Below are positions 9,246-62,030 of a stretch of DNA of 64,000 bases, piece after piece (within the stretch, counting starts at the first letter, position 1; every line of letters begins with the position of its first letter). Source of the DNA: Eledone cirrhosa (Eukaryota); NCBI GenBank assembly GCA_964016885.1, contig OZ024760.1, positions 29,388,001-29,452,000 of the forward strand. Direction: 5' to 3'. The translations under genes were made by a program, and so were the position numbers. The notes beneath the pieces are model-generated. The model did not search any database, was not told the DNA's origin, and worked only from the letters and a program-made list of their open reading frames with translations.

Positions 9246-9306
9246 TTTCATTTACCACTGGTTTCTTAAAAGCAAACAAATTTTGCTTTCAATCATCAGA
9301 ATGAAA
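9246..9306 (-). ncRNA. Type I hammerhead ribozyme motif, intact (left arm of fold-back)
   Basis: Minus strand TTTCATT-CTGATGA-TTGAAAGCAAA atttg TTTGCTTTTAA-GAAA-CCAGTGG-TA^-AATGAAA. Confidence 0.8.
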
Positions 9307-9370: not shown

Positions 9371-9431
9371 TTTCATTCTGATGATTGAAAGCAAAATTTG
9401 TTTGTTTTTAAGAAACCAGTGGTAAATGAAA
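9371..9431 (+). ncRNA. Type I hammerhead ribozyme motif, intact (right arm of fold-back)
   Basis: TTTCATT-CTGATGA-stem II-GAAA-CCAGTGG-TA^-AATGAAA, with a perfect 7-bp stem I. Confidence 0.8.
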
Positions 9432-21523: not shown

Positions 21524-23286
21524 ATCATCATCATCATCATCATCACCGTTTTACGTCCGTTCTTCCACGCTAGCATGGGTTAGACGGGTTGTCCTGTTGT
21601 GGGCAGTGTCTGGTCGGCTGACCATGCCTTGCTCATACAGGAACTGATCTGGCTTGATTTCTACAGCTGGATGCCCTTCCTAACACCAACCTCATTTACA
21701 GTGAGTGCTGGGTGCTTTTTCGTGGCGCCTACACGTCCACTTTACAGTGTGGGCTGGGTGCTTTTTTGCCGTGGCACCTCCACGACCACCTTGCGGTGGG
21801 GGGGGGGGGGCATATTGTTTATATGCTTCAGCATGTACCCATGGGAGGTCGGGTACCCTGTATTACTGCGTGACGCCAGAAGTCACGGTCGTGTGTCATT
21901 GACTTTGAGAGGTGTAGTTGGGTAAGGTCGGCTTTTATCACCTCATCCCAAGTCATCTTGGGTCTCCCCACTCCGCGGTTTCCATCAACTTCTAGTGCTC
22001 TGCACCTTTTTATGCAGCTGTCATCCTTCATACGCATCACATGTCCATACCAGCGTAACCGCCTCTCCTGCACGCAGCATTTGATTCCTCTTATGCTCAG
22101 TCTCTCTCTCAATTCATTTATGCTTTGTCGTTCACGTATATTACTGTTACACATCCATCGGAGCATGCAGGCTTCGTTTCTCTCTAATCTACGTAAGTCT
22201 TCCACCTTCAGCGCCCAGGTCTCACTACCATGCAACATCGCTGTTCGGATACACGCATCATACAGTCTGCCTTTCATTCTGAGGGAGAAGCCTTTTGCAG
22301 CTAGCAGTGGTAGTAGTTCCCTAAACTTCTTCCATCCCGTTCTTACCCTAGTTATTGTACTTTCTGAGCACCCACCTCCGTTGCTAATTCGGTCACCTAG
22401 GTAGCAGAAGCTGTCTACTGTTTCTACAGGGCCCTCCCAGAGATTGGTGGTACTTGTTTCCTGTGGCTGTTTGCTTGCTGTTTCAGCACAGCTGCTGCAT
22501 GTGAATCCTACATTCTTAATTAAGCTTCCTGAGATCCCGCTACATCTCTTGTGTACCCATTGTTTGCATTTGGGGCAAAGAATGGAGTTCCTACCTACAC
22601 CTTTCCTACATACTGAGCAAGGCCATTTCCCTGAGGGGATCTGGGTTCTGTTTTCTCGTCTACTTATAAGGACCTTAGTCTTTGTCATGTTGACTTTGAG
22701 GCCCTTTCTCTCTAGTCCCTGCTTCCAGGTTTGGAATTTATTCTCTAGTTCTACCATAGATTCAGCTATGAGTGCGAGGTCATCAGCATACAGGAGTTCC
22801 CATGGGCATCCGGTCTTAAACTCCTCCGTTATTGCCTGCAGGACTATGATGAACAGGAGAGGGCTAAGAACAGAGCCCTGGTGGACCCCAACCTGTACGC
22901 TAAATTCCTCGCTATACTCATTGCCAATCCTAACTTTGCTGACTGCTCCCCTATACATGGCTTGTACCGCTTTCACAAGCCATTCATCTACTCCTAGTTT
23001 TCTAAGAGCCCACCAGATTACTGCACGTGGAACTCTGTCAAAGGCTTTCTCAAGGTCGACAAATGCCAAGTAGAGTGGCTTACTTTTAGCTAGGTACTTT
23101 TCCTGTAATTGCCTCACAAGGAAGAGCGCATCAGTGGTGCCTTTCCCTGGAACAAACCCAAATTGCATCTCGTCTATATTCACCCGGTCCCTAATCAGCT
23201 GTGCTATAACTCTTTCTGTTACTTTCATGACCTGGTCCATCAACTTTATACCTCTATAGTTTCCTCTATCTATAGTTTCCTCTCTA
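21524..23286 (-). mobile_element. 5'-truncated RTE-clade LINE; intact 471-aa RT ORF (21828-23243); 7-bp TSD TTTAGTC
   Basis: QFGF, AFVDLEKAFDRV, GVHQGSVLSP, LLYADD, FCYLG, RLRWYGHV and GRPKMTW motifs. (GAT)n tail; TSD at 21517-21523 and 23287-23293. Confidence 0.95.
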
Positions 23287-23310
23287 TTTAGTCTTCAAAT
23301 TTATTATTAT

Positions 23311-23448: not shown

Positions 23449-23553
23449 CCTAGTGGCCCTTACTGATCAGTTTCGCTTTGTAAAACCTCATAAATCCGAT
23501 GGATTTATGATGGAAAACCAAAGCTCATCAGAGAAGCATTTTCCCTTCCTAGG
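23449..23553 (-). ncRNA. Type I hammerhead ribozyme motif, intact core, 50-nt stem II
   Basis: Minus strand CCTAG..GCTTCT-CTGATGA-GCTTTG[TCATAAATCC atc GGATTTATGA]CAAAGC-GAAA-CTGATCAG-TA^-AGGGC.CTAGG. Confidence 0.8.
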
Positions 23554-23914: not shown

Positions 23915-24019
23915 CCTAGTGGCCCTTACTGATCAGTTTCGCTTTGTAAAACCTCATAAATCCGATGGATTTATGATGGAAAACCAAAGCTCATCAGAGA
24001 AGCATTTTCCCTTCCTAGG
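23915..24019 (-). ncRNA. Second copy of the same hammerhead, 466 bp away
   Basis: Same sequence as 23449-23553. Confidence 0.8.
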
Positions 24020-34939: not shown

Positions 34940-37900
34940 ATCATCATCACCATCATCATCATCGTTTAACGTCCATCTTCCACGTTAGCAAGGGTTTGGA
35001 CGGTAATTTTCCCACTTGAGGCAAGATTGGTTGTCTTGCTCGTATAGGACTGTTTGGCGGGTTTTCTACGGCTGGATGCCCTTCCTAACACCAACCACAT
35101 TTACAGTGTGGACTGGGAGGTTTTTACCATGTTACCTACACGGCCACATTACAGCGTCGACTGTGTATTTTTTTGTTGTGACATCTACACGACCTCATTT
35201 ATTTTGGACTGGATGTTGTGGTACCAACATAACTTTACATCGAAAGGGGTGGTTTGGATGGGGTGGGGGTAGTGGGACAGGGGTGTATATTTGGTTAAGA
35301 GGTGCCTACTGACTGTAGGTTTCGCTTTGTACTTAGGCAAGGCGGGTCTTCTGTAATACTGCGTATATCCTCTGCACACAATGCCCAGGTCTCACTGCCA
35401 TGCAACATTGCTGTTCGTATGCAGGCATCATACAGCCTGCCTTTCATTTTTAGGGAGAACCCTTTAGCAGCTAATAGTGGTATAAGCTCTCTGAACTTTT
35501 TCCATCCAGTTCTGACTCTAGCTACTGTACTTTCAGAGCACCCTCCCCCACTGCTGATTTTGTCACTCAGGTAACGGAAGCTGTCCACTATTTCTATAGA
35601 ACCATCTGTGCAATGGAATGAGCTAGTATTCTGTGGGCACTTGCTGCTACTTATTGCACCTGAGCACCGGCCACATATAAAATCTATATTCTTAGTTAGC
35701 TTACTTGTGATCCCACTACATCTTTTATGCACCCATACTTTGTATTTGGGACATAAAATGGAGTTTCTGCCTACTCCTTTCCTACACACTGAGCATGGTC
35801 ATTTCCCAGATGGGACGGTGCCCTATTTTCCTTTCTACAAACTAGTACTTTAGTCTTAGGTTAATTTTAAAGCCTTTTGATTCTAGGCCATGCTTCCATG
35901 TTTGTTATTTCATCTCTAGTTCAGCCATTGATTCAGCTATGAGCGTTACATCATCTGCATATAGGAGTTCCCATGGGCAGCCGGTCTTGAACTCCTCTGT
36001 TATAACCTGAAGGGCAATAATAAATAGGAGGAGGCTAAGGACGGAGCCCTGATGAACACCAACTTTTACGCTAAACTCTTCACTATATTTGTTGTTAATT
36101 CTAACCTTGCTGACTGTTTCTTTATACATGGCTTGTATAGCTCTCACAAGCCATTCATCAACACCTAGTTTTCTGAGAGCCCACCAGATAATGGGGCGTG
36201 GGACTCTGTCAACGGCTTTCTCCAAGTCAACAAAAGCTAAGTATAGGGGTTTACTTTTAGCTAGGTACTTCTCCTGTAGTTGTCGTACAATGAAAAGAGC
36301 GTATGTGGTACTTTTACCTGACACAAACCCAAACTGCATTTCATCGAGATCAATTCGCTCTCTGATTAGTTGCGCTATTACTTTTTCTGTGACCTTCATG
36401 ACCTGGTCAATTAATTTAATGCCTCTATAGTTTCCCCTATCTAGGGCATCTCCTTTACCCTTGTAGCAGTTAATGATGATGCTGCTACGCCAGTCCTTCG
36501 GTACGACCCAATTCTGTATGACTTGGTTTACTATCCGGGTGACCATAGTGTGTCCCACCGTTCCAAATGCTTTCAGCATTTCAGTAACTATTTCCGAAGG
36601 CCCAGCCGCCTTACCCGTCTTCATATCTTTGATTGCCTTACTTATTATACTACCTTCAACTTGCACTGCTGGTCCCTCTATTGGATCGATGTGGGGGAGA
36701 CTGTCTTTCTCCCATTTATTCTCTTCATTTAGTAGCCTTTCGTAGTGACACTTCCAAGCTACCTTCTTATCAGCATCAGTGATGGCAAGTACACCATCAT
36801 CATTAAGGACACACTTTTCCCCGACAATATCACGGTTTTCCTTGACACATTGCCTAGCAATCCTGAACACCTCACGTTTTTGGTCCTTGCGTTGTAGAAC
36901 ATGCTTGAACTTTCTTTCCTCTGCTTCCCTTCTTGCGAAGTACACTTGTCTTCTAGCTTCCTTCCTGGCCACTTGATAGTCTTCTCTACTTCCCCCATCC
37001 CGCCATACTTTCCAAGCCTGCTTTTTGGCCTTGATCGACTCCTCCACCTTACTGTTGCACCACCAAGTTACTCTCCTCCTGCCTATAGGTCTGCTCCTGC
37101 CACAGATTTCATCTGTTGCCCTCAGCAGGTTAGCTTTCAGGAATTCCCACTGTTCCTCTATATTGTACGACTCTAATTGCTCTTCATTACTGTCGAAAGC
37201 ATCAAGTAATATGCTTTTAAATTTATTACTGGCTGTGGGGTCCTTTAGCTTCCATATTCTTCTCCTAAGGATAGTCCTCCTCTGTTGTCGAGTACGTTTC
37301 GTCCTGACTATGAGGTCGCTAACTATGAGTTTATGTTGGGAGGTGCATTCTTCATGGAGGAGTGATTTAGTGTTTACAACAGACACTCTGTCACATCTTC
37401 TGGTAAGGATATAATCTATCTGACTGGCGTGTTCCCCTGATCTATAGGTGATCAAGTGATTGTCTCGTTTTTTTTAAGTTAGTGTTACAGATAGTTAGGT
37501 TATTTGCGTCACAGAATTCCAGGATTCTGGAGCCTTCCTCATTTCTACTACCAAACCCATAGCCTCCATGGATTCCGTCATAGCCGTCACAATGTTGTCC
37601 AACGTAACCATTTAGGTCGCCTGCGATAATTATGTAGTCAATGTCGGTTATTTGGGAGGTAGTGAGCATTAATGACTCATAGAATCTGTCTTTTATAACG
37701 CCAGGCAGTCCGGATTGGGGTGCATACGCAGATATTACTGTCACAGTAGTTCTATTTAGGACAAGTCTTATTTTAATTATTCACTCTATTTACGTCTATT
37801 ATCTTATCTGCACATTTTTCTGCTAGCATGATTCCTACTCCACCCAGCCCATTGTCATTTCCCACCCAGAAAAGCTTATAGCATCGTTTTTTACCCACAA

Positions 37901-38817
37901 TGAATCTAGCAGACCCACCCCTCCACCTGGTCTCTTGGATACAGCAAACATCAACCTCCTTACGTTCAAGCATTTCTACAACCTCGTTAGAGCGACCTTT
38001 TAAGGTGCCTACATTCATGGTACCAACTCTGAAGTTTTGGATTGCGTTTGGTGGGTGGGAACGGTGGGGCGCAGGGAGGGGTGAGGGAGATGGGGTTATG
38101 TTAGCCATCCGCGGCCGAAATAAAGAGGAGTCCTTGCATTCTCATCCGGCAGCATGAGGTGAATTTGTCTTTATCTTTGGCATTCTCACTGAGTGTCCAG
38201 ATTTTTCAGACTCTCCAGAATTCCGTAGTCCATCCATCACATTGAAAGGCAACCAGGTCTAAACTTAAGAAGTGATAGCATAGGCCGCTGATTTATGATT
38301 GGTCCAAGTAATAATGGTGGCGAGTGGGGGCGAGTGGGAGGATATGGGGTAGTTAGCGAGAAGGTTTAAATAAAATCCTCGAATTTTGGGCATAATTGAA
38401 CAAGCATATCACAGTAATACGAGAAGAATTATGGAATTTTGAAATACAAGAAGATTATTTTGAACAATCAGACAGAATTATCGAATAGCATTGAAAAAGC
38501 AAAGATTGGATTCTGGACGATATGATACAAATAGATGAATGGACCAGGGAAGATGAAGGGAAGACAAAAAAAATAGCATTTGTAGATTACATTTCACAGA
38601 AGAGCGAGCGGTCTAACCAAGAATAAGGGATTGACAAATTCTGAGTTTCCTACTTGCAACAGGTTTATTTTATATTTGGAGAGAGAGGAAGGGATTGAGA
38701 GAGAACCAGCAGGCGTGTATACGATATTTAGGGGAGGGGTGAAGAATAGGAGGGAGCAGGAAGGTTATTTTATAAAATCCTAGAATTTCGGCCATAATTA
38801 AATGAACGATATCATCA
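34940..38817 (-). mobile_element. Near full-length, frameshifted RTE LINE (APE endonuclease + RT + PHD-like finger)
   Basis: APE: VGTMNVGTL, CIQETRW, SAYAPQ, AGDLNG, IDYIL, SQHKL (ORFs 37773-38108, 37442-37744, 35905-37455). RT: NYRGIKL, QFGF, LLYADD. (GAT)n tail. The 5' boundary is approximate. Confidence 0.92.
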
Positions 38818-44651: not shown

Positions 44652-47600
44652 CAAATGTTGGTTTTAACACGACATAGATTCTCATGTGACTGTGGCCATG
44701 CTGTAGCACCAAATGTTGGTTTTAACACGACATAGATTCTCATGTGACTGTGGCCATGCTGTAGCACCAAATGTTGGTTTTAACACGACATAGATTCTCA
44801 TGTGACTGTGGCCATGCTGTAGCACCAAATGTTGGTTTTAACACGACGTAGATTCTCATGTAACTGTGGCCATGCTGTAGCACCAAATGTTGGTTTTAAC
44901 ACGACATAGATTCTCATGTGACTGTGGCCATGCTGCAGCACCAAATGTTGGTTTTAACACGACATAGATTCTCATGTAACTGTGGCCATGCTGTAGCACC
45001 AAATGTTGGTTTTAACACGACATAGATTCTCATGTGACTGAGGCCATGCTGCAGCACCAAATGTTGGTTTTAACACGACATAGATTCTCATGTAACTGTG
45101 GCCATGCTGCAGCACCAAATGTTGGTTTTAACACGACATAGATTCTCATGTAACTGTGGCCATGCTGCAGCACCAAATGTTGGTTTTAACACGACATAGA
45201 TTCTCATGTAACTGTGGCCATGCTGCAGCACCAAATGTTGGTTTTAACACGACATAGATTCTCATGTGACTGTGGCCATGCTGTAGCACCAAATGTTGGT
45301 TTTAACACGACGTAGATTCTCATGTAACTGTGGCCATGCTGTAGCACCAAATGTTGGTTTTAACACGACATAGATTCTCATGTGACTGTGGCCATGCTGT
45401 AGCACCAAATGTTGGTTTTAACACGACGTAGATTCTCATGTAACTGTGGCCATGCTGTAGCACCAAATGTTGGTTTTAACACGACATAATTTCTCATGTG
45501 ACTGTGGCCATGCTGCAGCACCAAATGTTGGTTTTAACACGACATAGATTCTCATGTAACTGTGGCCATGCTGCAGCACCAAATGTTGGTTTTAACACGA
45601 CATAGATTCTCATGTAACTGTGGCCATGCTGCAGCACCAAATGTTGGTTTTAACACGACATAGATTCTCATGTAACTGTGGCCATGCTGCAGCACCAAAT
45701 GTTGGTTTTAACACGACATAGATTCTCATGTAACTGTGGCCATGCTGCAGCACCAAATGTTGGTTTTAACACGACATAGATTCTCATGTAACTGTGGCCA
45801 TGCTGCAGCACCAAATGTTGGTTTTAACACGACATAGATTCTCATGTAACTGTGGCCATGCTGCAGCACCAAAACGTTGGTTTTTAACACGACGTAGATT
45901 CTCATGTAACTGTGGCCATGCTGCAGCACCAAAACGTTGGTTTTAACATGACATAGATTCTCACGTGACTGTGGCCATGCTGCAGCACCAAATGTTGGTT
46001 TTAACACGACATAGATTCTCATGTAACTGTGGCCATGCTGCAGCACCAAATGTTGGTTTTTAACACAACATAGATTCTCATGTGACTGTGGCCATGCTGC
46101 AGCACCAAATGTTGGTTTTTAACACAACATAGATTCTCATGTAACTGTGGCCATGCTGCAGCACCAAATGTTGGTTTTTAACACAACATAGATTCTCATG
46201 TGACTGTGGCCATGCTGCAGCACCAAATGTTGGTTTTAACACGACATAGATTCTCATGTAACTGTGGCCATGCTGCAGCACCAAATGTTGGTTTTTAACA
46301 CAACATAGATTCTCATGTGACTGTGGCCATGCTGCAGCACCAAATGTTGGTTTTAACACGACATAGATTCTCATGTAACTGTGGCCATGCTGCAGCACCA
46401 AATGTTGGTTTTAACACGACATAGATTCTCATGTGACTGTGGCCATGCTGCAGCACCAAATGTTGGTTTTAACACCACATAGATTCTCATGTAACTGTGG
46501 CCATGCTGCAGCACCAAATGTTGGTTTTAACACGACATAGATTCTCATGTGACTGTGGCCATGCTGCAGCACCAAATGTTGGTTTTAACACGACATAGAT
46601 TCTCATGTGACTGTGGCCATGCTGCAGCACCAAATGTTGGTTTTAACACGACATAGATTCTCATGTGACTGTGGCCATGCTGCAGCACCAAATGTTGGTT
46701 TTAACACGACATAGATTCTCATGTGACTGTGGCCATGCTGCAGCACCAAATGTTGGTTTTAACACGACATAGATTCTCATGTGACTGTGGCCATGCTGCA
46801 GCACCAAATGTTGGTTTTAACACGACATAGATTCTCATGTAACTGTGGCCATGCTGTTGCACCAAATGTTGGTTTTAACACGACATACATTCTCATGTAA
46901 CTGTGGCCATGCTGCAGCACCAAATGTTGGTTTTAACACGACATAGATTCTCATGTAACTGTGGCCATGCTGCAGCACCAAATGTTGGTTTTAACACGAC
47001 ATAGATTCTCATGTAACTGTGGCCATGCTGCAGCACCAAATGTTGGTTTTAACACGACATAGATTCTCATGTAACTGTGGCCATGCTGCAGCACCAAATG
47101 TTGGTTTTAACACGACATAGATTCTCATGTAACTGTGGCCATGCTGCAGCACCAAATGTTGGTTTTAACACGACATAGATTCTCATGTGACTGTGGCCAT
47201 GCTGCAGCACCAAATGTTGGTTTTAACACGACATAGATTCTCATGTAACTGTGGCCATGCTGCAGCACCAAATGTTGGTTTTAACACGACGTAGATTCTC
47301 ATGTAACTGTGGCCATGCTGTAGCACCAAATGTTGGTTTTAACACGACATAGATTCTCATGTAACTGTGGCCATGCTGCAGCACCAAATGTTGGTTTTAA
47401 CACGACATAGATTCTCATGTGACTGTGGCCATGCTGCAGCACCAAATGTTGGTTTTAACACGACATAGATTCTCATGTAACTGTGGCCATGCTGCAGCAC
47501 CAAATGTTGGTTTTAACACGACATAGATTCTCATGTAACTGTGGCCATGCTGCAGCACCAAATGTTGGTTTTAACACGACATAGATTCTCATGTAACTGT

Positions 47601-50600
47601 GGCCATGCTGCAGCACCAAATGTTGGTTTTAACACGACATAGATTCTCATGTAACTGTGGCCATGCTGCAGCACCAAATGTTGGTTTTAACACGACATAG
47701 ATTCTCATGTAACTGTGGCCATGCTGCAGCACCAAATGTTGGTTTTAACACGACATAGATTCTCATGTAACTGTGGCCATGCTGCAGCACCAAATGTTGG
47801 TTTTAACACGACGTAGATTCTCATGTAACTGTGGCCATGCTGTAGCACCAAATGTTGGTTTTAACACGACATAGATTCTCATGTAACTGTGGCCATGCTG
47901 CAGCACCAAATGTTGGTTTTAACACGACATAGATTCTCATGTAACTGTGGCCATGCTGCAGCACCAAATGTTGGTTTTAACACGACATAGATTCTCATGT
48001 AACTGTGGCCATGCTGCAGCACCAAATGTTGGTTTTAACACAACATAGATTCTCATGTGACTGTGGCCATGCTGCAGCACCAAATGTTGGTTTTAACACA
48101 ACATAGATTCTCATGTAACTGTGGCCATGCTGCAGCACCAAATGTTGGTTTTAACACAAAATAGATTCTCATGTAACTGTGGCCATGCTACAGCACCAAA
48201 TGTTGGTTTTAACACGACATACATTCTCATGTAACTGTGGCCATGCTGCAGCACCAAAACGTTGGTTTTAACACGACATACATTCTCATGTAACTGTGGC
48301 CATGCTGCAGCACCAAAACGTTGGTTTTATCACGACATACATTCTCATGTAACTGTGGCCATGCTGCAGCACCAAATGTTGGTTTTAACATGACATAGAT
48401 TCTCATGTAACTGTGGCCATGCTGCAGCACCAAATGTTGGTTTTAACATGACATAGATTCTCATGTAACTGTGGTCATGCTGCAGCACCAAAACGTTGGT
48501 TTTAACACGACATACATTCTCATGTAACTGTGGCCATGCTGCAGCACCAAAACGTTGGTTTTAACACGACATACATTCTCATGTAACTGTGGCCATGCTG
48601 CAGCACCAAAACGTTGGTTTTAACACGACATACATTCTCATGTAACTGTGGCCATGCTGCAGCACCAAATGTTGGTTTTAACATGACATAGATTCTCATG
48701 TAACTGTGGCCATGCTGCAGCACCAAATGTTGGTTTTAACACGACATAGATTCTCATGTAACTGTGGCCATGCTGTAGCACCAAATGTTGGTTTTAACAC
48801 GACATAGATTCTCATGTAACTGTGGCCATGCTGTAGCACCAAATGTTGGTTTTAACACGACATAGATTCTCATGTAACTGTGGCCATGCTGCAGCACCAA
48901 ATGTTGGTTTTAACATGACATAGATTCTCATGTAACTGTGGCCATGCTGTAGCACCAAATGTTGGTTTTAACACGACATAGATTCTCATGTAACTGTGGC
49001 CATGCTGCAGCACCAAATGTTGGTTTTAACACGACATAGATTCTCATGTAACTGTGGCCATGCTGTAGCACCAAATGTTGGTTTTAACACGACATAGATT
49101 CTCATGTAACTGTGGCCATGCTGCAGCACCAAATGTTGGTTTTAACACGACATAGATTCTCATGTAACTGTGGCCATGCTGTAGCACCAAATCTTGGTTT
49201 TAACACGATGTAGATTCTCATGTAACTGTGGCCATGCTGTAGCACCAAATCTTGGTTTTAACACGACGTAGATTCTCATGTAACTGTGGCCATGCTGTAG
49301 CACCAAATGTTGGTTTTAACACGACATAGATTCTCATGTGACCGTGGCCATGCTGCAGCACCAAATGTTGGTTTTAACACGACATAGATTCTCATGTAAC
49401 TGTGGCCATTCTGTAGCACCAAATGTTGGTTTTAACACGACATAGATTCTCATGTGACTGTGGCCATGCTGCAGCACCAAATGTTGGTTTTAACACAACA
49501 TAGATTCTCATGTAACTGTGGCCATGCTGTAGCACCAAATGTTAGTTTTAACACGACATAGATTCTCATGTAACTGTGGCCATACTGCAGCACCAAATGT
49601 TGGTTTTAACACGACATAGATTCTCATGTAACTGTGGCCATGCTGCAGCACCAAATGTTGGTTTTAACACGACATAGATTCTCATGTAACTGTGGCCATT
49701 CTGCAGCACCAAATGTTGGTTTTAACACGACATAGATTCTCATGTAACTGTGGCCATGCTGTAGCACCAAATGTTGGTTTTAACACGACATAGATTCTCA
49801 TGTAACTGTGGCCATGCTGCAGCACCAAATGTTGGTTTTAACACGACATAGATTCTCATGTAACTGTGGCCATGCTGCAGCACCAAATGTTGGTTTTAAC
49901 ACGACATAGATTCTCATGTAACTGTGGCCATTCTGCAGCACCAAATGTTGGTTTTAACACAACATAGATTCTCATGTAACTGTGGCCATGCTGTAGCACC
50001 AAATGTTGGTTTTAACACGACATAGATTCTCATGTAACTGTGGCCATGCTGCAGCACCAAATGTTGGTTTTAACACAACATAGATTCTCATGTAACTGTG
50101 GCCATGCTGCAGCACCAAATGTTGGTTTTAACACGACATAGATTCTCATGTAACTGTGGCCATTCTGCAGCACCAAATGTTGGTTTTAACACGACATAGA
50201 TTCTCATGTAACTGTGGCCATGCTGTAGCACCAAATGTTGGTTTTAACACGACATAGATTCTCATGTAACTGTGGCCATTCTGCAGCACCAAATGTTGGT
50301 TTTAACACGACATAGATTCTCATGTAACTGTGGCCATGCTGCAGCACCAAATGTTGGTTTTAACACAACGTAGATTCTCATGTAACTGTGGCCATGCTGC
50401 AGCATCAAATGTTGGTTTTAACACGACATAGATTCTCATGTGACCGTGGCCATGCTGCAGCACCAAATGTTGGTTTTAACACGGCATAGATTCTCATGTA
50501 ACTGTGGCCATTCTGCAGCACCAAATGTTGGTTTTAACACGACATAGATTCTCATGTAACTGTGGCCATGCTGCAGCACCAAATGTTGGTTTTAACACAA

Positions 50601-53600
50601 CGTAGATTCTCATGTAACTGTGGCCATGCTGCAGCACCAAATGTTGGTTTTAACACGACATAGATTCTCATGTGACCGTGACCATGCTGCAGCACCAAAA
50701 CGTTGGTTTTAACACGACGTAGATTCTCATGTAACTGTGGCCATGCTGTAGCACCAAATCTTGGTTTTAACACGACGTAGATTCTCATGTAACTGTGGCC
50801 ATGCTGTAGCACCAAATGTTGTTTTTAACACGACATAGATTCTCATGTGACTGTGGCCATGCTGCAGCACCAAATGTTGGTTTTAACACGACATAAATTC
50901 TCATGTAACTGTGGCCATGCTGTAGCACCAAATGTTGGTTTTAACACGACATAGATTCTCATGTAACTGTGGCCATGCTGCAGCACCAAATGTTGGTTTT
51001 AACATGATATAGATTCTCATGTAACTGTGGCCATGCTGTAGCACCAAATCTTGGTTTTAACACGACGTAGATTCTCATGTAACTGTGGCCATGCTGTAGC
51101 ACCAAATGTTGGTTTTAACACGACGTAGATTCTCATGTAACTGTGGCCATGCTGTAGCACCAAATCTTGGTTTTAACACGACGTAGATTCTCATGTAACT
51201 GTGGCCATGCTGTAGCACCAAATCTTGGTTTTAACACGATGTAGATTCTCATGTGACCGTGGCCATGCTGCAGCACCAAATGTTGGTTTTAACACGACAT
51301 AGATTCTCATGTAACTGTGGCCATGCTGCAGCACCAAATGTTGGTTTTAACACGACATAGATTCTCATGTAACTCTGGCCATGCTGCAGCACCAAATGTT
51401 GGTTTTAAACATGACATAGATTGTCATGTAATTGTGGCCATGCTGCAGCACCAAATGTTGGTTTTAACACGACATAGATTCTCATGTAACTGTGGCCATG
51501 CTGCAGCACCAAAACGTTGGTTTTAACACGACATAGATTCTCATGTAACTGTGGCCATGCTGCAGCACCAAATGTTGGTTTTAACACGACATAGATTCTC
51601 ATGTAACTGTGGCCATGCTGCAGCACCAAATGTTGGTTTTAACACGACATAGATTTTCATGTAACTGTGGCCATGCTGCAGCACCAAATGTTGGTTTTAA
51701 CACAACATAGATTCTCATGTGACTGTGGCCATGCTGCAGCACCAAATATTTGTTTTTAACATGACATAGATTCTCATGTAACTGTGGCCATGGTGCAGCA
51801 CCAAATGTTGGTTTTAACACGATGTAGATTCTCATGTGACTGTGGCCATGCTGCAGCACCAAATGTTGGTTTTAACACGATGTAGATTCTCATGTAACTG
51901 TGGCCATGCTGCAGCACCAAATATTGGTTTTAACACGACGTAGATTCTCATGTAACTGTGGCCATCCTGCAGCACCAAAACGTTGGTTTTAACACGACAT
52001 ACATTCTCATGTAACTGTGGCCATGCTGCAGCACCAAATGTTGGTTTTTAACACGACGTAGATTCTCATGTAACTGTGGCCATGCTGCAGCACCAAAACG
52101 TTGGTTTTAACACAACATAGATTCTCATGTAACTGTGGCCATGCTGTAGCACCAAATGTTGGTTTTAACACGACATAGATTCTCATGTAACTGTGGCCAT
52201 GCTGCAGCACCAAATGTTGGTTTTAACACGATGTAGATTCTCATGTAACTGTGGCCATGCTGCAGCACCAAATGTTGGTTTTAACACGACATAGATTCTC
52301 ATGTAACTGTGGCCATGCTGCAGCACCAAATATTTGTTTTTAACATGACATAGATTCTCATGTAACTGTGGCCATGGTGCAGCACCAAATGTTGGTTTTA
52401 ACACGATGTAGATTCTCATGTGACTGTGGCCATGCTGCAGCACCAAATGTTGGTTTTAACACGATGTAGATTCTCATGTAACTGTGGCCATGCTGCAGCA
52501 CCAAATATTGGTTTTAACACGACGTAGATTCTCATGTAACTGTGGCCATCCTGCAGCACCAAAACGTTGGTTTTAACACGACATACATTCTCATGTAACT
52601 GTGGCCATGCTGCAGCACCAAATGTTGGTTTTTAACACGACGTAGATTCTCATGTAACTGTGGCCATGCTGCAGCACCAAAACGTTGGTTTTAACACAAC
52701 GTAGATTCTCATGTAACTGTGGCCATGCTGTAGCACCAAATGTTGGTTTTAACACGACATAGATTCTCATGTAACTGTGGCCATTCTGCAGCACCAAATG
52801 TTGGTTTTAACACGACATAGATTCTCATGTAACTGTGGCCATGCTGCAGCACCAAATGTTGGTTTTAACACAACGTAGATTCTCATGTAACTGTGGCCAT
52901 GCTGCAGCACCAAATGTTGGTTTTAACACGACATAGATTCTCATGTAACTGTGGCCATGCTGCAGCACCAAATGTTGGTTTTAAACATGACATAGATTGT
53001 CATGTAATTGTGGCCATGCCGCAGCACCAAATGTTGGTTTTAACACGACATAGATTCTCATGTAACTGTGGCCATGCTGTAGCACCAAATGTTGGTTTTA
53101 ACACGACATAGATTCTCATGTGACCGTGGCCATGCTGCAGCACCAAAACGTTGGTTTTAACACGACATAGATTCTCATGTAACTGTGGCCATGCTGCAGC
53201 ACCAAATGTTGGTTTTAACACGACATAGATTCTCATGTAACTGTGGCCATGCTGCAGCACCAAATGTTGGTTTTAACACGACATAGATTTTCATGTAACT
53301 ATGGCCATGCTGCAGCACCAAATGTTGGTTTTAACACGACATAGATTTTCATGTAACTGTGGCCATGCTGCAGCACCAAATGTTGGTTTTAACACGACAT
53401 AGATTCTCATGTAACTGTGGCCATTCTGCAGCACCAAATGTTGGTTTTAACACGACATAGATTCTCATGTAACTCTGGTCATGCTGCAGCACCAAATATT
53501 TGTTTTCAACATGACATAGATTCTCATGTAACTGTGGCCATGCTGCAGCACCAAATGTTGGTTTTAACACGATGTAGATTCTCATGTAACTGTGACCATG

Positions 53601-53852
53601 CTGCAGCACCAAATGTTGGTTTTAACACGATGTAGATTCTCATGTAACTGTGGCCATGCTGCAGCACCAAATGTTGGTTTTAACACAACATAGATTCTCA
53701 TGTAACTGTGGCCATGCTGCAGCACCAAACGTTGGTTTTAACACGACATAGATTCTCATGTAACTGTGGTCATGCTGCAGCACCAAACGTTGGTTTTAAC
53801 ATGACAGATTACTGTTTTAAGAATCTCGCGTGACTGTGGCCATGCTGGAGCA
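44652..53852. repeat. 9.2-kb, 58-bp satellite array (~158 copies)
   Basis: Unit CAAATGTTGGTTTTAACACGACATAGATTCTCATGTAACTGTGGCCATGCTGCAGCAC. Confidence 0.97.
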
Positions 53853-59532: not shown

Positions 59533-59624
59533 ACATATCTGAGGAGCTTTCAATTCCAGAGTCAGGTTCGATCATTAATAGATCATTCCTCGAGCTGATC
59601 GACAGTGAAACATATGTAATATGT
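59533..59624 (+). ncRNA. Type I hammerhead motif, intact, 61-nt stem II
   Basis: ACATAT-CTGAGGA-GCT...AGT-GAAA-CATATG-TA^-ATATGT. Confidence 0.75.
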
Positions 59625-59741: not shown

Positions 59742-59852
59742 GTATTAACAATTGTTTCGTTGATCAGGTGAGTCTAGAGGTCGCTAATCGCTTGAAGTTG
59801 CGTCACTCGATCTCCAATACATTGTTTACCTCTGACCAAATCCTCAGAATAC
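59742..59852 (-). ncRNA. Type I hammerhead motif, intact, 82-nt stem II, CAATTG family
   Basis: GTATT-CTGAGGA-TTTGGTCAG...CTGATCAAC-GAAA-CAATTG-TT^-AATAC. Confidence 0.8.
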
Positions 59853-61215: not shown

Positions 61216-61254
61216 CGAGAACAATTGTTTCACCTTATGCAGATCTTCAGCTCG
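61216..61254 (-). ncRNA. Minimal type I hammerhead motif
   Basis: CGAG-CTGAAGA-TCTgcataAGGT-GAAA-CAATTG-TT^-CTCG. Confidence 0.7.
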
Positions 61255-61461
61255 GACTGGTTATGGTTATACGGAACAGGAAGAACAACCGTATGTATAT
61301 ATATATATATATAATAAGGGTTGACGGACCCAGCATATTTATCAATGCCAGTACCGGTTGTATCTCAGCGTACTCAATAGGCAATGTAAGATACATTACC
61401 AGAGTATACACATAGTTATTCACTTCAACACAACACACGTAAAACGGGTGCCTATAAGGTT

Positions 61462-61571
61462 CCCGGACTCGAGTTTCTGCCGCACTAATAGAGCAGTAAG
61501 GTGCACTGCACCATCTGTCTGCATATATTATGCAACAATGCACAATCGGCTAATGCGGCTTCATCAGCGGG
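61462..61571 (-). ncRNA. Type I hammerhead ribozyme motif, intact, 83-nt stem II
   Basis: CCCG-CTGATGA-A-GCCGCATTAG...TTAGTGCGGC-A-GAAA-CTCGAG-TC^-CGGG. Confidence 0.85.
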
Positions 61572-61854
61572 TATCGCCTAATCAATAACCAATCGATCGA
61601 CAGAATCCAAATACCGGCCCGTGCCGGTCAAGACTGTTTGTGACAACCAACACGGTAAAGCGATTAACTGGCAACCTATAGGACTCTATCTCTCAACTAG
61701 CCCCTGATTTACACATTTTACCTGGGGACAGGCAGCTAAAGAGAATCAATCTTTTAGTTCCTGTCAGAAGTTCTCAGCCAACGTCTCACACACAAATTAT
61801 CAAGGGGTGAAAAGATGGCTATTAGAAATAGCAGTTCACATTGATATAAAATAG

Positions 61855-61896
<42 letters not shown>

Positions 61897-62030
61897 TAGG
61901 AGAGGAGTATGTAGGTGTTGTTATCTCCAAGACATCAATACCTTGATAGCAAAATGTATGTATGTGTATGTGTCTATATATATATGTGTCTATATATGTG
62001 TGTGTGTGTGTGTGTGAGTTTGTGTGTGTG

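Follow-up and report, generated by a model that had tools for sequence, protein, structure and literature searches.

The hammerhead motif on the minus strand of the window (the whole 64,000-nt stretch of DNA analysed here) belongs to an 839-bp repeat that is probably a non-autonomous Penelope-like element (PLE), i.e., a non-LTR retrozyme, an already described class. What appears to be new is the predicted branched stem II of 83 to 84 nt in a PLE-type hammerhead. The analysis supports the note's identification of a genuine type I hammerhead whose stem II is long and structured; this stem is predicted to form a three-way junction kept across three subfamilies of the repeat, with some compensatory changes. 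The high-copy Penelope-like unit, the predicted three-way junction and the copy-specific nature of the 10-bp helix that closes stem II in the window were all missing from the earlier note on this DNA.

Anatomy of the motif and of the repeat that carries it

In minus-strand order, the motif starts with CCCG of stem I (61571-61568), followed by a CUGAUGA box, the 83-nt stem II, a GAAA box, a palindromic CUCGAG and GUC, and finishes with CGGG of stem I′ (61465-61462) (Table 1). The hallmarks of a type I hammerhead, i.e., CUGANGA and GAAA boxes, an NUH cleavage site, three helices and an open stem I, are all present. The palindromic CTCGAG stem III and the GUC site described in the earlier note are both there, and five TGCA palindromes were counted in stem II, in line with its description of the insert. 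Its "perfect core" needs qualification, as the base of stem II has an additional A on either side. Instead of the G10.1-C11.1 pair expected directly adjoining the core, subfamily A has A.A at 10.1/11.1, and subfamilies B and C have A/C. The 83-nt stem II and the 10-bp closing helix both exist in this copy, the latter with two G.U pairs, but the 10-bp length is private to it, because 47 of 50 unselected subfamily A copies (four duplicates removed beforehand) have A where the window copy has T, and none has T; the family helix measures 7 bp. In addition, a private change of two bases disrupts P2b, the second inner hairpin, at its base. Rfam gave no match at gathering score across the 64-kb window, and no hammerhead family was among its four matches at E ≤ 5 in 61250-61900. 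The window copy is most likely an inert insertion, solo and decayed.

Table 1. Features of the hammerhead locus, in window positions
Feature	Position	Strand	Remark
Hammerhead motif, type I, stem I to stem I′	61462-61571	-	Predicted cut after 61466, between 61466 and 61465
CUGAUGA core box	61561-61567	-	0/11 differences between A and B majorities in stem I plus core (partly by search-pattern construction)
83-nt stem II, predicted three-way junction closed by helix P2 (61559-61553 paired to 61485-61479), with an A.A mismatch at the base	61478-61560	-	
Inner hairpin P2a, 8 bp, 4-nt loop	61527-61546	-	96.5% of cells paired; G.U/A-U switch
Inner long hairpin P2b	61488-61524	-	Base damaged by two private changes; register ambiguous
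GAAA box, palindromic stem III, GUC triplet	61466-61477	-	8-nt palindrome can pair intermolecularly, -10.7 kcal/mol
33-nt block, same in A, B and C majorities	61575-61607	-	Hairpin of 7 bp predicted immediately 5′ to stem I
Predicted hairpin, 5′ end of would-be 3′ cleavage product	61445-61465	-	Competes with stem I; similar one predicted in B and C
144-nt tail to the fixed 3′ end of the family	61318-61461	-	85/89 loci end at unit 832-839
Short TTA tract, then (TA)n target microsatellite	61296-61317	-	
5′-truncated copy, unit 300-839 of 839-bp repeat, subfamily A	61318-61855	-	94% to full unit in L022

The motif had been called unrelated, which holds with respect to the other hammerheads of the window; it is nevertheless a member of a large genome-wide family. 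This family is a repeat of ~840 bases; judging from its tandem copies, the unit is 839 bp long, its core lies at position 590 and the cut would follow position 691. The exact core-to-core pattern has 728 matches in the genome, a lower bound on the number of copies, compared with 0 for the reversed control, and the 5′-flank motif has 895; in a DNA search, the best 40 of 2,598 candidates were full-length matches at 94-100%. Among 89 loci selected by the tail motif alone, nearly all share the 3′ end given in Table 1, typically followed by TTA repeats and (TA)n. Their 5′ ends fall anywhere along the unit, with 60 of the 89 loci starting upstream of the cut site. Some copies are partial head-to-tail tandems, and one inverted pair occurs at L261; two exact cores in tandem were found in 1 of the 89 loci only, which counts against the model proposed below. 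Six-frame translation of the unit revealed no reverse transcriptase (RT)/endonuclease (EN) ORF, and no frame is conserved among the copies; three duplicate places were dropped from the set of best hits. Three contig sets from one study, of unspecified kind, contained family variants only, one of which pointed to subfamily C.

Partial tandems, a fixed 3′ end, 5′ truncation and microsatellite targets together make up the anatomy of a non-autonomous PLE or non-LTR retrozyme, PMC8557442 having described it for PLEs. Retrozymes of 51-972 bp are treated as non-autonomous PLEs in a recent preprint (Li, Clavereau and Pollet 2026, bioRxiv 10.64898/2026.07.22.740005). As described there and in Cervera and de la Pena 2020 (PMC7229834), animal non-LTR retrozymes share with our repeat the lack of a conserved ORF, a type I hammerhead and head-to-tail repeats; the 839-bp unit falls inside the 51-972 bp range, and PLEs are present in the same genome. 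Unlike those retrozymes, the family consists mostly of dispersed 5′-truncated monomers rather than arrays, its hammerhead is non-canonical, with a 4-bp stem I and the branched stem II of 83-84 nt, and no PLE with a homologous end was found here. The canonical retrozyme hammerhead has a helix I of ~6 bp, a helix II of ~4 bp and a loop 1-loop 2 contact, which the 4-bp stem I and 83-nt stem II of the window copy do not match.

Introns occur in PLE ends. Splice-like signals are found at unit ~33-125 (for example in L022, L168 and L181), in a part missing from the truncated window copy; a donor-like GAGAGTAAG is followed there by a tract rich in pyrimidines and by AAG as a putative acceptor; the GAGAGTAAG signals are kept in subfamilies A, B and C.

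Subfamilies and the predicted fold of stem II

The family comprises three subfamilies, A, B and C, up to ~30% apart. Subfamily B emerged from the core pattern search, and subfamily C, with a GUA cleavage site and 132 exact matches, has full-length copies at 67-69% to the A unit. Between A and B, divergence amounts to 17-20% upstream, 5% in the 5′ flank, 9.6% (8/83) in stem II and 9.2% in the tail, and none of the 27 positions of stem I and the core boxes differs, partly by construction of the search pattern. The difference between stem II and the upstream region is supported by a Fisher test (p=0.04); that stem II is no better conserved than the tail counts against the model. The core boxes and the palindrome are unchanged in A, B and C, again partly through pattern selection, and the core is intact in 34 of 50 unselected A copies. 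Thirty further loci were chosen by the 5′ flank alone, three of which were unscorable. Stem II measures 82-84 nt in 23 of the 27 scorable loci, and the base at the cut site is C, U or A, never G, in all 27, which corresponds to about two subfamily-level changes.

Stem II of all three subfamily majorities is predicted to fold as a three-way junction (z -4.6 to -6.4), in which helix P2 leads to the hairpins P2a and P2b, and the majorities have 26 of their 30-31 predicted pairs in common; nine unclassified copies were left out of these majorities, and the "C" majority mixes two variants in distal P2b. Two-sided switches between G-C and A-U in P2 and between U.U and G-C in distal P2b distinguish the majorities, as does a G.U/A-U switch in P2a. 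When the same substitutions were placed at random, an equally stable fold was obtained in a fraction of 0-0.039 of 2000 trials, depending on which of five directions was considered. In 32 real copies, 90.4% of cells pair, compared with 27-52% in slid controls, and 23 cells are changed on both sides, a number reached by 0 of 500 shuffles. The count of pairs changed on both sides is less telling, with 7 against 4.8 in shuffled data (52/500 shuffles), and counts against the model. At the third pair of P2, the 50 unselected A copies have C-G in 31 cases, A-U in 8, C.U in 4 and other combinations in 7. The C.U-mismatch variant of P2 has spread, since it occurs in these 4 of 50 copies and a U is found, by eye, in ~24 of the best 61 hits. 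The base of P2b is without any two-sided change, and RNAalifold retains P2 and P2a and places the second arm in a different register. Few independent events underlie the covariation, which counts against the model.

Predicted hairpins at 61445-61465 and 61575-61607 flank the ribozyme in all three subfamilies, and the 3′ one would cap the cleavage product.

The hammerhead is closest in type to those of PLEs. Like the metazoan PLE hammerheads of Cervera and de la Pena 2014 (PMC4209133), it is of type I, with a helix I of 4-5 bp, a 7-bp base of helix II, an extra base between 9 and 10.1, and a palindromic helix III that implies dimer cleavage. It departs from them by its 69-nt two-hairpin domain, by the extra base also on the 3′ side, and by the absence of an RT/EN ORF. 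Hydra-clade and PLE-X hammerheads, as presented in Craig et al. 2021 (PMC8557442), likewise have (TA)n targets, a palindromic stem III and a frequent one-by-one base mismatch. By our own count from that source, stem II is already long, at 54 nt, in PLE-X1_sMoe of Selaginella; in the animal rows of its File S2, unlike here, it is at most ~26 nt, and none of those rows that we counted is drawn branched. The same paper reports eight Naiads, one of them from Octopus, with core halves 35-50 nt apart. Our literature search, whose coverage was partial, yielded no report of a PLE hammerhead with a naturally branched stem II. The core search in PMC8557442 used spacers of 7-17 nt. As short-spacer descriptors and Rfam miss motifs of the present kind, hammerheads in these genomes are probably undercounted.

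Predicted activity, proposed mobilisation and competing explanations

The predicted folding of the ribozyme depends on its context. In a minimal construct, stem I forms with a probability of 0.7-0.97; with 45-nt flanks, this probability falls to 0.001-0.002 in the monomer. The active fold then lies 6.8-7.6 kcal/mol above the minimum, versus 2-3 kcal/mol with 8-nt flanks, and the larger gap holds for the window copy and all three majorities. The flanks are thus predicted to outcompete stem I by ~7 kcal/mol, which argues against activity. Dominance of an alternative fold, which the earlier note had named as evidence against the motif, is in this sense partly borne out in silico. Stem III has 1-2 bp in the monomer; between two RNAs the palindrome forms an 8-bp duplex. 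The short palindromic stem III is therefore predicted to be able to pair between two copies, as in the dimer-type PLE hammerheads with palindromic stem III (PMC4209133; PMC6765202). The 10.1/11.1 pair is the most conserved after A15.1-U16.1, and U.U is its best tolerated mismatch (PMC3088659). No cleavage footprint was detected among the 5′ ends, 2 of 89 lying within 5 nt of the cut site compared with ~2.2 expected from local density.

A comparable case is the Poseidon element PAc of Anolis (PMC11167929), which has a fixed 3′ end downstream of its hammerhead, AT-rich targets and no ends at the cut site, as does our repeat. PAc differs in being autonomous, in having an ordinary stem II and in initiating in an AC-rich stem-loop, whereas the present family ends at a UUA tract. 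According to the same study, PAc RNA was cleaved only with the protein of the element, insertion in vitro did not require this cleavage, uncut RNA served as the principal template, and reverse transcription starts internally. The predicted weak activity and the absence of a 5′-end footprint match the PAc pattern. The role of PLE hammerheads is called unclear in PMC8557442.

We infer that the helper is a Penelope-like enzyme. Elements with a GIY-YIG endonuclease are plentiful in the genome (best 150 of 10,597 candidates scored), and a young Hydra-like family is represented by copies at 98-100% identity among the best 150 of 62,526 candidates. The labels "Hydra-like" and "Neptune-like" were given by eye, because Pfam returned no family for two Hydra-like ORF pieces. 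Some Hydra-like copies end in a TTA tract followed by (TA)n, as the 839-bp unit does. BLAST of the unit gave no match in 50 GIY-YIG loci, and none in 30 loci of the Hydra-like family, which is thereby set apart from the unit in the sample compared. Across these 80 PLE loci, a sample of over 10,000 candidates, no homology to the pLTR of an autonomous PLE was detected, and long-ORF loci yielded no autonomous parent either. In a scan of 120 endonuclease C-termini with a descriptor that misses 13-nt Neptune-type motifs, this hammerhead followed three of them (L273, and L228 and L039, which are one place), with intervening (TA)n runs; two Hydra-like C-termini of the 120 were followed by motifs with a 36-nt stem II without intervening (TA)n. 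Where checked, PLE fragments near family copies were separated from them by (TA)n or lay on the opposite strand.

Other PLEs of this genome carry hammerhead-like motifs of their own. The very abundant, young Hydra-like element at loci L319-L348, with open frames of up to ~713-726 aa, has a 3′ hammerhead-like motif with a variant CAGAAGA box that is unscored by the descriptor. Neptune-like elements (L299, L300, L304, L308, L310, L316 and L081-L108) have U3-A8-type cores (UUGAAAA/UUGAUAA; UUGANAA) with a stem II of 13-14 nt.

We consider it likely that the repeat is a retrozyme mobilised in trans by PLEs, that its 3′ ~295 nt form a selected RNA domain containing a gated ribozyme, and that the branched arm probably acts as a handle, either for structure or for binding. 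The fixed 3′ end, ragged 5′ ends, partial head-to-tail tandems and (TA)n targets of the family would fit the following sequence of events. A source copy in partial tandem would be transcribed, and a borrowed reverse transcriptase/GIY-YIG enzyme would nick AT-rich (TA)n DNA. Reverse transcription would begin internally, at the UUA tract that lies ~148 nt beyond the cut site, and then run 5′ through the ribozyme to stop at random. An internal start and copying through the ribozyme would imply a template that is uncut, or re-ligated as a circle. The ribozyme would normally be off or slow, owing to its 1-2-bp monomer stem III, the mismatch at the stem II base and the sequestration of stem I by the flanks, and it might cut only as a palindrome dimer and/or with the help of a protein. 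The last ~295 nt of the unit, comprising the 5′ hairpin, the core, the branched stem II and the tail, have changed less than the rest between subfamilies, and the predicted fold survives the changes in stem II, as may be expected of a selected domain. The least secure part of the proposal is that the branched arm would be a folding or protein-binding handle and not a catalytic part. A more specific version, which we consider less likely than not, is that the branched stem II replaces the loop-loop contact and serves to capture the Penelope enzyme, the flanking hairpins keeping the ribozyme off until a protein or a dimer intervenes. If this were true, oversized hammerheads would represent a widespread class missed by short-stem-II descriptors and Rfam.

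Two of the alternatives concern what stem II and the ribozyme are worth to the element. The 69-nt insert might simply be tolerated: it would fold by itself, have entered once, and have persisted by descent and by the need not to disturb the core, with only the base of stem II required. We regard this as rather unlikely. The lack of two-sided changes at the base of P2b and its ambiguous register, the propagation of the mismatch variant, and a stem II that diverges as much as the tail would all suit such a passenger, as would the continuum of 13-82 nt across unrelated families, which suggests that length is loosely constrained. Against it, the length of stem II has stayed at 83-84 nt while upstream DNA diverged by 20-30%, the distal arm was rewritten in subfamily C and still pairs, and random placement of the substitutions rarely gives so stable a fold (fractions ≤0.039). 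It is very unlikely that the ribozyme of subfamily A is catalytically dead, the motif being a recognition structure or a relic, even though A.A at 10.1/11.1 (PMC3088659), an active monomer fold ~7 kcal/mol above the minimum with flanks, the absence of a pile-up of 5′ ends at the cut site, and the dispensability of cleavage for PAc insertion in vitro all speak in its favour. Such one-by-one mismatches at the base of stem II are common in Hydra-clade hammerheads (File S2 of PMC8557442), the core boxes and the palindrome are constant across A, B and C within the limits of pattern selection, and G is absent from the cut site in the 27 scorable flank-selected loci, a weak argument given the ~two changes involved.

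Less probable still is a coding origin, in which the long conserved stem II would derive from the ORF start of a parent element, with the AUG in the core as in PAc, whose ORF begins at stem II. The subfamily A majority does have a frame of ~90 codons starting at the core AUG, and in 21 of 42 A copies this region stays open for 82 codons. However, A is frameshifted relative to B and C after codon 26, and of 47 codons compared between B and C, 14 carry non-synonymous changes and 2 synonymous ones, so that a coding explanation for stem II is largely refuted. The three dated subfamilies and their natural compensatory pairs are ready-made constructs for asking if this large domain contributes to catalysis, helps to recruit the enzyme or has no function.

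Long stems II in the window and the genome

Long stems II recur in several families above chance. A strict descriptor gave 8 hits in 59 × 10 kb and 0 in 10 local dinucleotide shuffles, and a relaxed descriptor gave 59 hits in 79 × 10 kb and 3 in 10 shuffles; long-stem-II hits are therefore not at the level of shuffled sequence, the comparison by which the earlier note had proposed to judge them. In the relaxed sample, drawn from a 3.0-Gb genome and including 15 short-stem hits from a single tandem array (L130), stem II is ≤25 nt in 25 motifs, 26-44 nt in 28, 45-69 nt in 5 and 82 nt in 1. Thus 34 of the 59 motifs reach at least 26 nt, and lengths run continuously from 13 to 82 nt over unrelated families. 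Extended stems II are accordingly frequent in this genome, with 83 nt at the upper limit of the range.

Within the window, stems II of 50 nt (23461 and 23927), 55 nt (28691) and 82 nt (59747, CAATTG) are predicted to fold as closed single hairpins. The earlier claim that long stems II occur in several families here stands for these sites; it is weak for the 61-nt site (59539-59618, plus strand), which has a 3-bp closure that the minimum-energy fold leaves unclosed (z -0.4). The absence of similarity to the CAATTG family was confirmed, since BLAST matched the element nowhere else in the window, not even at the CAATTG copy (59747-59847). In that family (59747-59847, minus strand; L119:914), the 82-nt stem II has a base mismatch and is predicted to form one long bulged hairpin, and these two copies differ at many positions.

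Several other arrangements were observed. Two identical hammerheads with a 50-nt stem II lie 466 bp apart on the minus strand (23461-23531 and 23927-23997), likely as a tandem retrozyme-type unit. Near-identical hammerheads with a 27-nt stem II stand back to back in inverted orientation at 9253-9299 (minus strand) and 9378-9424 (plus strand), and similar inverted pairs occur in L117, L115, L143, L388, L390 and L395. The tandem array in L130 repeats a ~420-bp unit, and its 10 kb contain at least 15 short-stem hammerheads. Elsewhere in the window, open frames at 21828-23294 and 35295-38141 (minus strand) contain, by eye, pieces of RTE/LINE-type reverse transcriptase and endonuclease, and 44652-53806 is occupied by a 58-bp satellite of ~157 copies at 95% identity.
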